Shown here: positions 1 through 660 of the stretch, in pieces | Layout: every line of letters starts with the position of its first letter | Position numbering within the stretch: position 1 is the stretch's first letter | DNA from: Escherichia coli | Lineage (GTDB): Bacteria; Pseudomonadota; Gammaproteobacteria; Enterobacterales; Enterobacteriaceae | Length of the DNA: 660 nucleotides | Assembly (NCBI RefSeq): GCF_003334255.1 | Contig: NZ_QOWU01000201.1 | Direction: 5' to 3' (one strand) | Notes under the pieces: generated by a model | Database searches by the model: none | Seen by the model: the letters and a program-made list of their open reading frames with translations, nothing else | Told to the model about the DNA's origin: nothing | Position numbers and translations under genes: made by a program

Positions 1-660
1 CCCTCATCCTCGCTGCGGATAAGTTTGCCGGTCAGGTCGTGGTGATAACGCTGTGTGCGGCCGTCAAAGCCGGTTTCCTGTATCAGCCGGTCGAGTACAT
101 CGTAACGGAAGGTGGTGTGGCTGCCGTTTTCACTGGTCAGGCGGATGACCCGTCCGGCAGCATCGTATTCCATACTGCGCGTCAGCCCGCCCTGCGTGGT
201 ACAGATGGCCTTTCCCCACGCATCGTACTGTGTCCCGTTTCTGCTGCCGTCCGGGGCAATGACGGCGGTCAGGTCACCGGCGATGTTGTATTCATACCGC
301 GTTTCATGGCCCTGCGTGTCTTTCACGGCAATTAACTGTCCACGGCTGTCGTATGCGCGGTACTGACTCAGCCCTTCCTCGCGGTGCACCGCCGTCATCT
401 GCCCGAAGCGGTCATGGTCATAACGGGTTACATAACCGGAACAGTCGGTGAAGCTCAGCAACTGACCGTAACGGCTCCACGTCATGGTTTTCCGGCTGCC
501 GGTGGCATCTTCCGTTGCGCAGGGTAAGTCACTGTGTGGATTATCATAACGGTAGCGGGTGATATCGCCGTCAGGGGCAGTTTCCTGAATCAGACGGCCC
601 AATTCATCATATTCCCGGCGCAATTCCAGCCCGTCAGGCCCGGTGGCTGACGTTAACTGG
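1..660 (-). CDS. rhs: Rhs-family core protein (YD-repeat region), internal fragment truncated at both window edges; RhsA/B/C-type enterobacterial core
   Basis: Seen in sequence: the reverse complement read from window position 659 gives 219 consecutive sense codons with no stop, ending at position 3. Translation begins QLTSATGPDGLELRREYDELGRLIQETAPDGDITRYRYDNPHSDLPCATEDATGS and ends SHTTFRYDVLDRLIQETGFDGRTQRYHHDLTGKLIRSEDEG. It contains repeated YD dipeptides in the Rhs/YD-repeat context (xYxYDxxGRL(I/V), spaced about 21 residues). Established knowledge: this matches, from memory, the conserved core of E. coli-type Rhs proteins; no database search was run. Paralog (rhsA, rhsB, rhsC etc.) cannot be assigned because the cores are near-identical, so the symbol is the family designation only. 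Absent from the ORF track because it runs off both edges. Confidence 0.94.
36..611 (-). repeat. Tandem array of about ten YD (Rhs) peptide-repeat units encoded on the minus strand, period about 63 nt; protein-level repeats, not identical DNA repeats
   Basis: Seen in sequence: the codons for the Y-D (or degenerate) dipeptide fall at plus-strand coordinates 606..611 (EYD), 543..548 (YRYD), 465..470 (degenerate YG), 417..422 (RYDHD), 348..353 (YRAYD), 285..290 (degenerate YEYN), 222..227 (QYD), 162..167 (EYD), 99..104 (RYD) and 36..47 (degenerate YHHD). Spacing is 60 to 69 nt. On the plus strand the recurring hexamer is atcgta or atcata, the reverse complement of tacgat or tatgat. Confidence 0.85.

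Follow-up and report, generated by a model that had tools for sequence, protein, structure and literature searches.

The analysed stretch of Escherichia coli DNA, in the following called the window, comprises 660 nt. Frame 1 of the minus strand spans the full 660 nt as 219 codons without a stop; 4–15 stops were counted in each of the other five frames. The window translation on this strand (QLTSATGPDGLELRREYDELGRL...GKLIRSEDE, 219 aa) contains six RHS_repeat matches (PF05593, Pfam) with E-values from 1.1e-10 to 1.4e-4. Very probably, the window represents codons 472–692 of a full-length Rhs polymorphic-toxin gene of the E. coli RhsA/B/C subfamily, located on the minus strand. Codons 473–691 are complete at window positions 659 down to 3, and the partial codons 472 and 692 form the edges. 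A scan of the whole window against Rfam yielded 0 matches at E ≤ 1. The features of the window are listed in Table 1.

Table 1 Features of the 660-nt window
Feature	Position	Strand	Basis
Internal segment of an E. coli RhsA/B/C-type Rhs core gene	1..660	-	Sole open frame; 100% matches; NF041261; PDB relatives
Flagged edge, codons 673–692, ...RTQRYHHDLTGKLIRSEDE-G	1..60	-	Frame exits the window toward the C-terminus
RHS repeat, best-scoring (window-translation aa 165–202)	54..167	-	PF05593, E 1.1e-10
RHS repeat (window-translation aa 103–139)	243..353	-	PF05593, E 3.9e-10
RHS repeat (window-translation aa 62–96)	372..476	-	PF05593, E 1.1e-07
RHS repeat (window-translation aa 1–32)	564..659	-	PF05593, E 4e-07

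In PDB sequence alignments the window translation is colinear with the mid-cocoon of Tse5 (8cp6, residues 397–600, E 1.6e-48). It also aligns with RhsA of P. protegens (7q97, residues 601–810) and with the Rhs protein of S. bongori (8qja, residues 1180–1397). From these alignments the window is predicted to encode the central stretch of the YD-repeat wall of the beta-cocoon in Rhs effectors.

An earlier note on this DNA had drawn attention to positions 1–60, regarded position 1 as the C-terminal side of the fragment and placed the variable parts of the system beyond it. The orientation is correct, as the minus-strand frame leaves the window at position 1 and is colinear with solved Rhs proteins. 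Positions 1–60 themselves are an ordinary YD-repeat stretch, of significance as the exit of the frame only, and in homologues the variable tip lies beyond position 1, as the note had supposed, at a distance of about 1.6 kb. In rhsB of genome G1/2 (L001) the protein continues beyond position 1 as ...GLVTHWHYDEADRLTHRTVKGE..., with more YD repeats.

A mechanical list of open reading frames also contains a plus-strand ORF of 98 aa with GTG start at positions 39–335. The possibility that the gene of the flagged region is in fact this ORF or one of the other antisense frames is practically negligible. ORF 39–335 is wholly antisense to the 219-codon open frame with its strong family matches, and rhs is the sole RefSeq gene annotated across the region. 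Antisense open frames are frequent in coding DNA with 59% G+C, and ORF 39–335 is probably an artefact of such a coding sequence. The plus-strand ORFs of the window, lying opposite the family-supported rhs frame, were rejected as antisense artefacts.

Copies of the window in E. coli genomes

Among the complete E. coli genomes searched by megablast (5,426), the window was matched in 3,897, at 16,622 places (median per genome, 4). The matched places are annotated as rhsA, rhsB, rhsC or "RHS element core protein". Identity of 100% was found for three records among the matches listed, in which each record is represented by its one best place: G1/2 (rhsB), G6/7 (rhsA) and G8 (rhsA). The Rhs proteins of these three genomes are identical, and gene order is near-identical at both loci. 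The 100%-matching proteins are an RhsB of 1,411 aa and an RhsA of 1,377 aa, and the window corresponds to codons 472–692 in both. With the 100%-matching RhsB the NCBIfam model NF041261 (RHS_core) reached 2647 bits, compared with a cut-off of 2000, and covered aa 1–1247. TIGR03696 also matches the 100%-matching full-length Rhs protein.

The exact 660 nt are present twice in G6/7, in rhsA (L002) and in rhsB (L004), which by the record coordinates are located about 140 kb apart. Between the two cores 0 differences were counted from core nt 82 to 3467 (about 3.4 kb). Recent gene conversion between these distant paralogues of G6/7 is suggested. The original discovery of Rhs elements came about through unequal crossing-over of rhsA with rhsB, which was dependent on recA (Jackson et al. 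2009, PMC2935791). The core differences in G6/7 are confined to the first 81 nt and to the last approximately 270 nt ahead of the tip (L002 8586–12326; L004 17077–21312, minus strand).

Since the cores of the paralogues are homogenised, a 660-nt core window carries no information on the tip that follows. Sequence identity was rejected as a means of assigning the window to a single locus, as rhsA and rhsB of G6/7 are both exact and rhsC is one base off.

The rhsA gene of G1/2 (L003 14408–18531) is annotated as frameshifted. Compared with rhsA of G6/7 it carries deletions of 2, 2 and 6 nt and one substitution, and the 6-nt deletion sits within the window-homologous region. These indels could be assembly errors or real mutations.

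Core boundary, toxin tips and immunity genes

In the 100%-matching loci the motif PxxxxDPxGL is located at aa 1238–1247, as the tail of a hyperconserved DPxG-(18)-DPxG motif at aa 1221–1246. From position 1 it is 546 codons (1,636 nt) to the start of PxxxxDPxGL and 1,666 nt to its end. The distance to the motif was 1,636–1,637 nt in 11 copies, and the same residues were found in two more, so that all 13 homologous copies agree with the statement of the earlier note that the core ends at this motif "several hundred codons" further on. The identity of RhsA and RhsB drops from 50/50 per block to about 9/50 past the motif, and the G+C content changes from 0.60–0.66 in the core to 0.33–0.36 in the tip. 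A G+C-rich core with an A+T-rich core extension of 130–177 aa has been described for these elements (PMC2935791).

A complete AT-rich tip of 130–164 aa with an adjacent small immunity gene (yibA, yhhH or ybfB) follows the motif in 12 of the 13 homologous copies, again in line with the earlier proposal, and the orphan fragments expected downstream are present at the rhsA and rhsC loci. The exception is the nikR-side Rhs of strain 58-3 (window identity 99.5%). Here an IS1 element is inserted 20 aa past DPLGL (L014 5001–5773), and neither the remainder of the tip nor yhhH is present. This copy is a natural core without toxin/immunity module. Thus, the case named in advance as refuting, a core without usable tip and immunity module, does occur, in one of the 13 copies; the other 12 speak against it.

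That the source copy of the window is itself truncated or pseudogenised in this way, lacking a functional tip or immunity module, is considered very unlikely. Besides the loss in 58-3, one IS3-interrupted copy (H48) was found, and rhsA of G1/2 as well as rhsC of N18-04097 and D9 are annotated as frameshifted. However, assembly indels could lie behind the frameshift annotations, as the short deletions in rhsA of G1/2 lead us to infer. The module is complete in the 12 copies mentioned, and 3,893 of 3,903 matching genomes have a copy that covers at least 80% of the 1,666-nt core continuation.

Three unrelated tips of 130, 150 and 164 aa follow copies of at least 99.7% identity. The RhsA tip (130 aa) belongs to Ntox34 (PF15606, E 3.6e-43), and its GNVAD and WNCRH correspond to the signatures GNxxD and WxCxH. 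The HEAT-repeat protein YibA (NF007244, E 2.9e-140) is encoded directly behind this tip. The RhsB tip (164 aa) was assigned to DUF4329 (PF14220, E 2.6e-39) and shows the signature HTH...SGKD (HTHGADSHGEYWDEIFSGKD). YhhH, directly after this tip, has an NTF2 fold and matches Imm-NTF2-2 (PF15631, E 1.2e-24). The RhsC tip (150 aa) is cysteine-rich, and the small, hydrophobic membrane protein YbfB comes next. YibA, YhhH and YbfB are putative cognate immunity proteins, assigned at the family level. The Ntox34/HEAT module would be relevant only if the window is an rhsA copy, and the DUF4329/NTF2 module only if it is an rhsB copy.

The Pfam run for the RhsC tip, the two orphan tips (rhsC and rhsA loci), YbfB, YbfC, YibG and YhhH was carried out on one GS-linked concatenate, in which YhhH alone matched significantly; this procedure is unorthodox, but the per-domain E-values should hold. 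An NCBIfam search with the RhsA, RhsB and orphan tips, the neighbours of the tips, YhhH and YibG gave YibA as the sole useful match. In the PDB sequence search, matches to the RhsA and RhsB tips were at chance level (E > 0.5).

Both combinations, Ntox34 with Imm-HEAT and Tox-JAB-2 (DUF4329) with Imm-NTF2, are listed for RHS proteins by Zhang et al. (2012, PMC3482391). H[ST]H...S..D is the signature in the family definition of Tox-JAB-2/DUF4329, and for JAB-type toxin domains a role as nuclease rather than peptidase was suggested in that study (PMC3482391). According to the account of Vlazny and Hill (1995) given by Poole et al. (2011, PMC3150448), the C-terminal region of RhsA blocks recovery from stationary phase and yibA neutralises this effect.

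No significant Pfam match was obtained for the RhsC tip, for the orphan tips of the rhsC and rhsA loci or for YbfB, YbfC and YibG. The 150-aa RhsC tip, YbfB and the orphan with YbfC would lie beyond position 1 if the window originated from rhsC or another paralogue of the RhsA/B/C/F type. This origin appears unlikely: the 100% matches are all rhsA or rhsB, and no exact rhsC is found among the matches listed, with one best place per record. On the other hand, the rhsC copies of N18-04097 and D9 are only 1 and 2 bases off, the homogenised cores make locus calls from 660 nt unreliable, and the rhsC-locus products, as stated, are without significant Pfam match.

The RhsB tip with yhhH was found in 2,684 genomes with at least 80% query cover. 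For the RhsA tip with yibA 3,142 genomes match, of which 1,757 have at least 80% cover. A further set of genomes retains yibA but not the tip. In the four partial matches listed, yibA is kept together with the last approximately 32 nt of the tip, so that the immunity gene is present and the rest of the Ntox34 tip is lost.

The earlier note had hoped for a novel toxin/immunity pair at this locus. This hope was not borne out by the 100% matches, which carry the Ntox34/Imm-HEAT and DUF4329/Imm-NTF2 modules catalogued in 2012. An undescribed pair on a conserved core in the source genome is highly improbable. The exchangeable tips on near-identical cores, with three unrelated tips behind copies of at least 99.7% identity, the RhsB-type tip at the yibF-side locus of strain 503440, and C-terminal displacement as a published mode of diversification (PMC2935791) would allow for it. 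Against it, one of three K-12-type tips was present in all 13 copies examined, the exact-match genomes contain known tips only, and the RhsB-type and RhsA-type modules are as widespread as given above. A very low probability is assigned to the more general expectation that either a pair outside the three K-12-type modules or an RhsC-type tip lies 1.64 kb beyond position 1.

The rhsA locus adjoins yibF and consists of the Ntox34 tip, YibA, an orphan core/tip fragment with YibG, a second degenerate fragment and an Imm57 pseudogene. The orphan fragment (L002 14088–15041) carries PVINVDPQGL and a 162-aa tip and is followed by yibG; the Imm57 gene downstream of the second fragment is frameshifted. 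In one RefSeq record the orphan fragment bears the label DUF8616. The rhsB locus adjoins nikR and has the DUF4329/Tox-JAB-2 tip, YhhH, a yibA remnant and ISEc1, with no further orphan than the yibA remnant. The rhsC locus, adjoining ybfA, is composed of the tip, ybfB, an orphan fragment and then ybfC (L005/L008). The rhsC orphan tip follows a degenerate motif, PVQYIDSMGL. The tip, the orphan tip, YbfB and YbfC of the rhsC locus are known K-12 sequences, as is the orphan tip of the rhsA locus; no significant NCBIfam match was obtained for them either. With the 3' part of the core as query, 24,378 places were matched (median 7 per genome), whereas the window itself was matched at 16,622 (median 4). 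Orphan 3'-core fragments would account for such an excess.

At the rhsB locus, the HEAT pseudogene that follows yhhH (L001 13177–13631) is a remnant of yibA with 111 of 117 aa identical. At the DNA level it is 96.8% identical to a stretch beginning within the final 32 nt of the rhsA tip. The yibF-side locus of strain 503440 has the RhsB-type tip, then yhhH and then yibA in intact form (L015 5949–6895). We infer from sequence comparison that the DUF4329/yhhH module probably replaced an Ntox34 tip at the rhsB locus and left the immunity gene of the latter behind. C-terminal displacement is a published mode of rhs diversification (PMC2935791). Because 503440 has an RhsB-type tip at the yibF-side locus, the flanking genes do not fix the tip.

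N-terminal region and gene neighbourhood

In homologous copies the start of the gene lies outside the window, some 1.4 kb past position 660. The genes upstream are nikABCDER for rhsB, yibF-selAB for rhsA and ybfA-kdpFAB for rhsC. At the loci examined no vgrG, eagR (DUF1795) or PAAR gene was present within 6–10 kb upstream. The vgrG or PAAR neighbours suggested in the earlier note are therefore absent from this range at the homologous loci. Of the linkage to vgr that is otherwise usual, Jackson et al. (2009, PMC2935791) state that it "is not true in E. coli", and "neighborless" Rhs-CTs in E. coli were described in a review (PMC6730261). The same review states that K-12 and B laboratory strains possess these genes and no type VI system (PMC6730261). 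The local gene context is without support for type VI delivery.

[quoted passage not shown] A complete PAAR domain was not found: PF05488 (PAAR_motif) matched with E 0.22 over model positions 51–69 of 70 (19/70), and the PAAR proteins 9rce_c (E 0.022) and 4jiv_D (E 0.58) from the PDB aligned with their last approximately 28 residues only. The N-terminus MSGKPAARQGD... contains one PAAR-like segment (KPAARQGD...), which is vestigial (L001 8586–8730, aa 1–48). GH|PVNP at aa 46–51 aligns with the mapped N-terminal cleavage site H304|P305 of P. protegens RhsA (PMC8765631). By this alignment, the E. coli Rhs would release an N-terminal piece of only about 47 residues.

Proposed architecture and related systems

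In the homologous loci the core runs 546 more codons to DPxG-(18)-DPxGL, and the same arrangement is predicted for the source copy, with a tip of 130–164 aa and then an immunity gene. The 100% matches offer two alternatives for the region beyond position 1, which may be of the rhsA type (Ntox34/YibA) or of the rhsB type (DUF4329/YhhH). By analogy to related Rhs proteins, the YD-repeat cocoon would enclose the toxin tip, the C-terminal aspartyl autoprotease would cleave the tip by DPxGL, and the N-terminal plug (DUF6531) would seal the opposite end of the cocoon. The closed cocoon, the autoprotease and the plug are known from published Rhs structures (PMC8765631). The toxin may be delivered to neighbouring cells, probably via the type VI secretion system where a strain has one, and would be freed upon delivery. 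The producer would be protected by the cognate immunity protein.

The closest known relatives are the Rhs elements RhsA, RhsB and RhsC of K-12, from the work of Hill and colleagues (rhsABCF subfamily, clade I, Jackson et al. 2009). K-12 rhsB is 99.5% identical to the window (3 mismatches) and K-12 rhsA 99.4% (4 mismatches), the latter count being inflated as the record is annotated as frameshifted. The matched loci share with K-12 the flanks, the tips (Ntox34, DUF4329) and the downstream yibA, yibG, yhhH and ISEc1. In contrast to the lineage of G1/2, G6/7 and G8 with identical cores over about 3.4 kb, rhsA and rhsB of K-12 differ at internal core sites.

With the Rhs effectors of type VI systems (Tse5 8cp6, P. 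protegens RhsA 7q97, S. bongori 8qja, Tse15, Tre23) the full protein shares the cocoon, with E-values from 1.6e-127 to 3.7e-38. The DUF6531 plug and the C-terminal DPxGL autoprotease region are common to both. However, the E. coli Rhs has 47 residues ahead of GH|PVNP and is without a full PAAR domain, prePAAR motif, transmembrane region and adjacent vgrG or eagR; its toxin tips are unrelated.

Tc toxins (TcB/TcC; YenC2 4igl, TccC2 6l7i) and teneurins are distant relatives. They share the Rhs-associated core at aa approximately 1147–1249 (E 1e-6 to 5e-4) and the YD shell, but their N-terminal closure is another one, and Tc toxins are delivered through TcA. Teneurins neither cleave nor enclose a toxin (PMC8765631). 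Contact-dependent inhibition (CDI) by CdiA-CT/CdiI with the VENN motif follows the same logic of conserved delivery part, short boundary motif, swappable tip, adjacent immunity gene and arrays of orphan tip/immunity modules (PMC3150448). CDI proteins are an unrelated family exported by two-partner secretion, and the likeness is one of working, not of membership.

In general, a 660-nt piece of the multi-copy Rhs core is a repeat without distinctive content, from which the following toxin cannot be inferred. The Rhs core and the modules on its best matches are already known biology of E. coli K-12.
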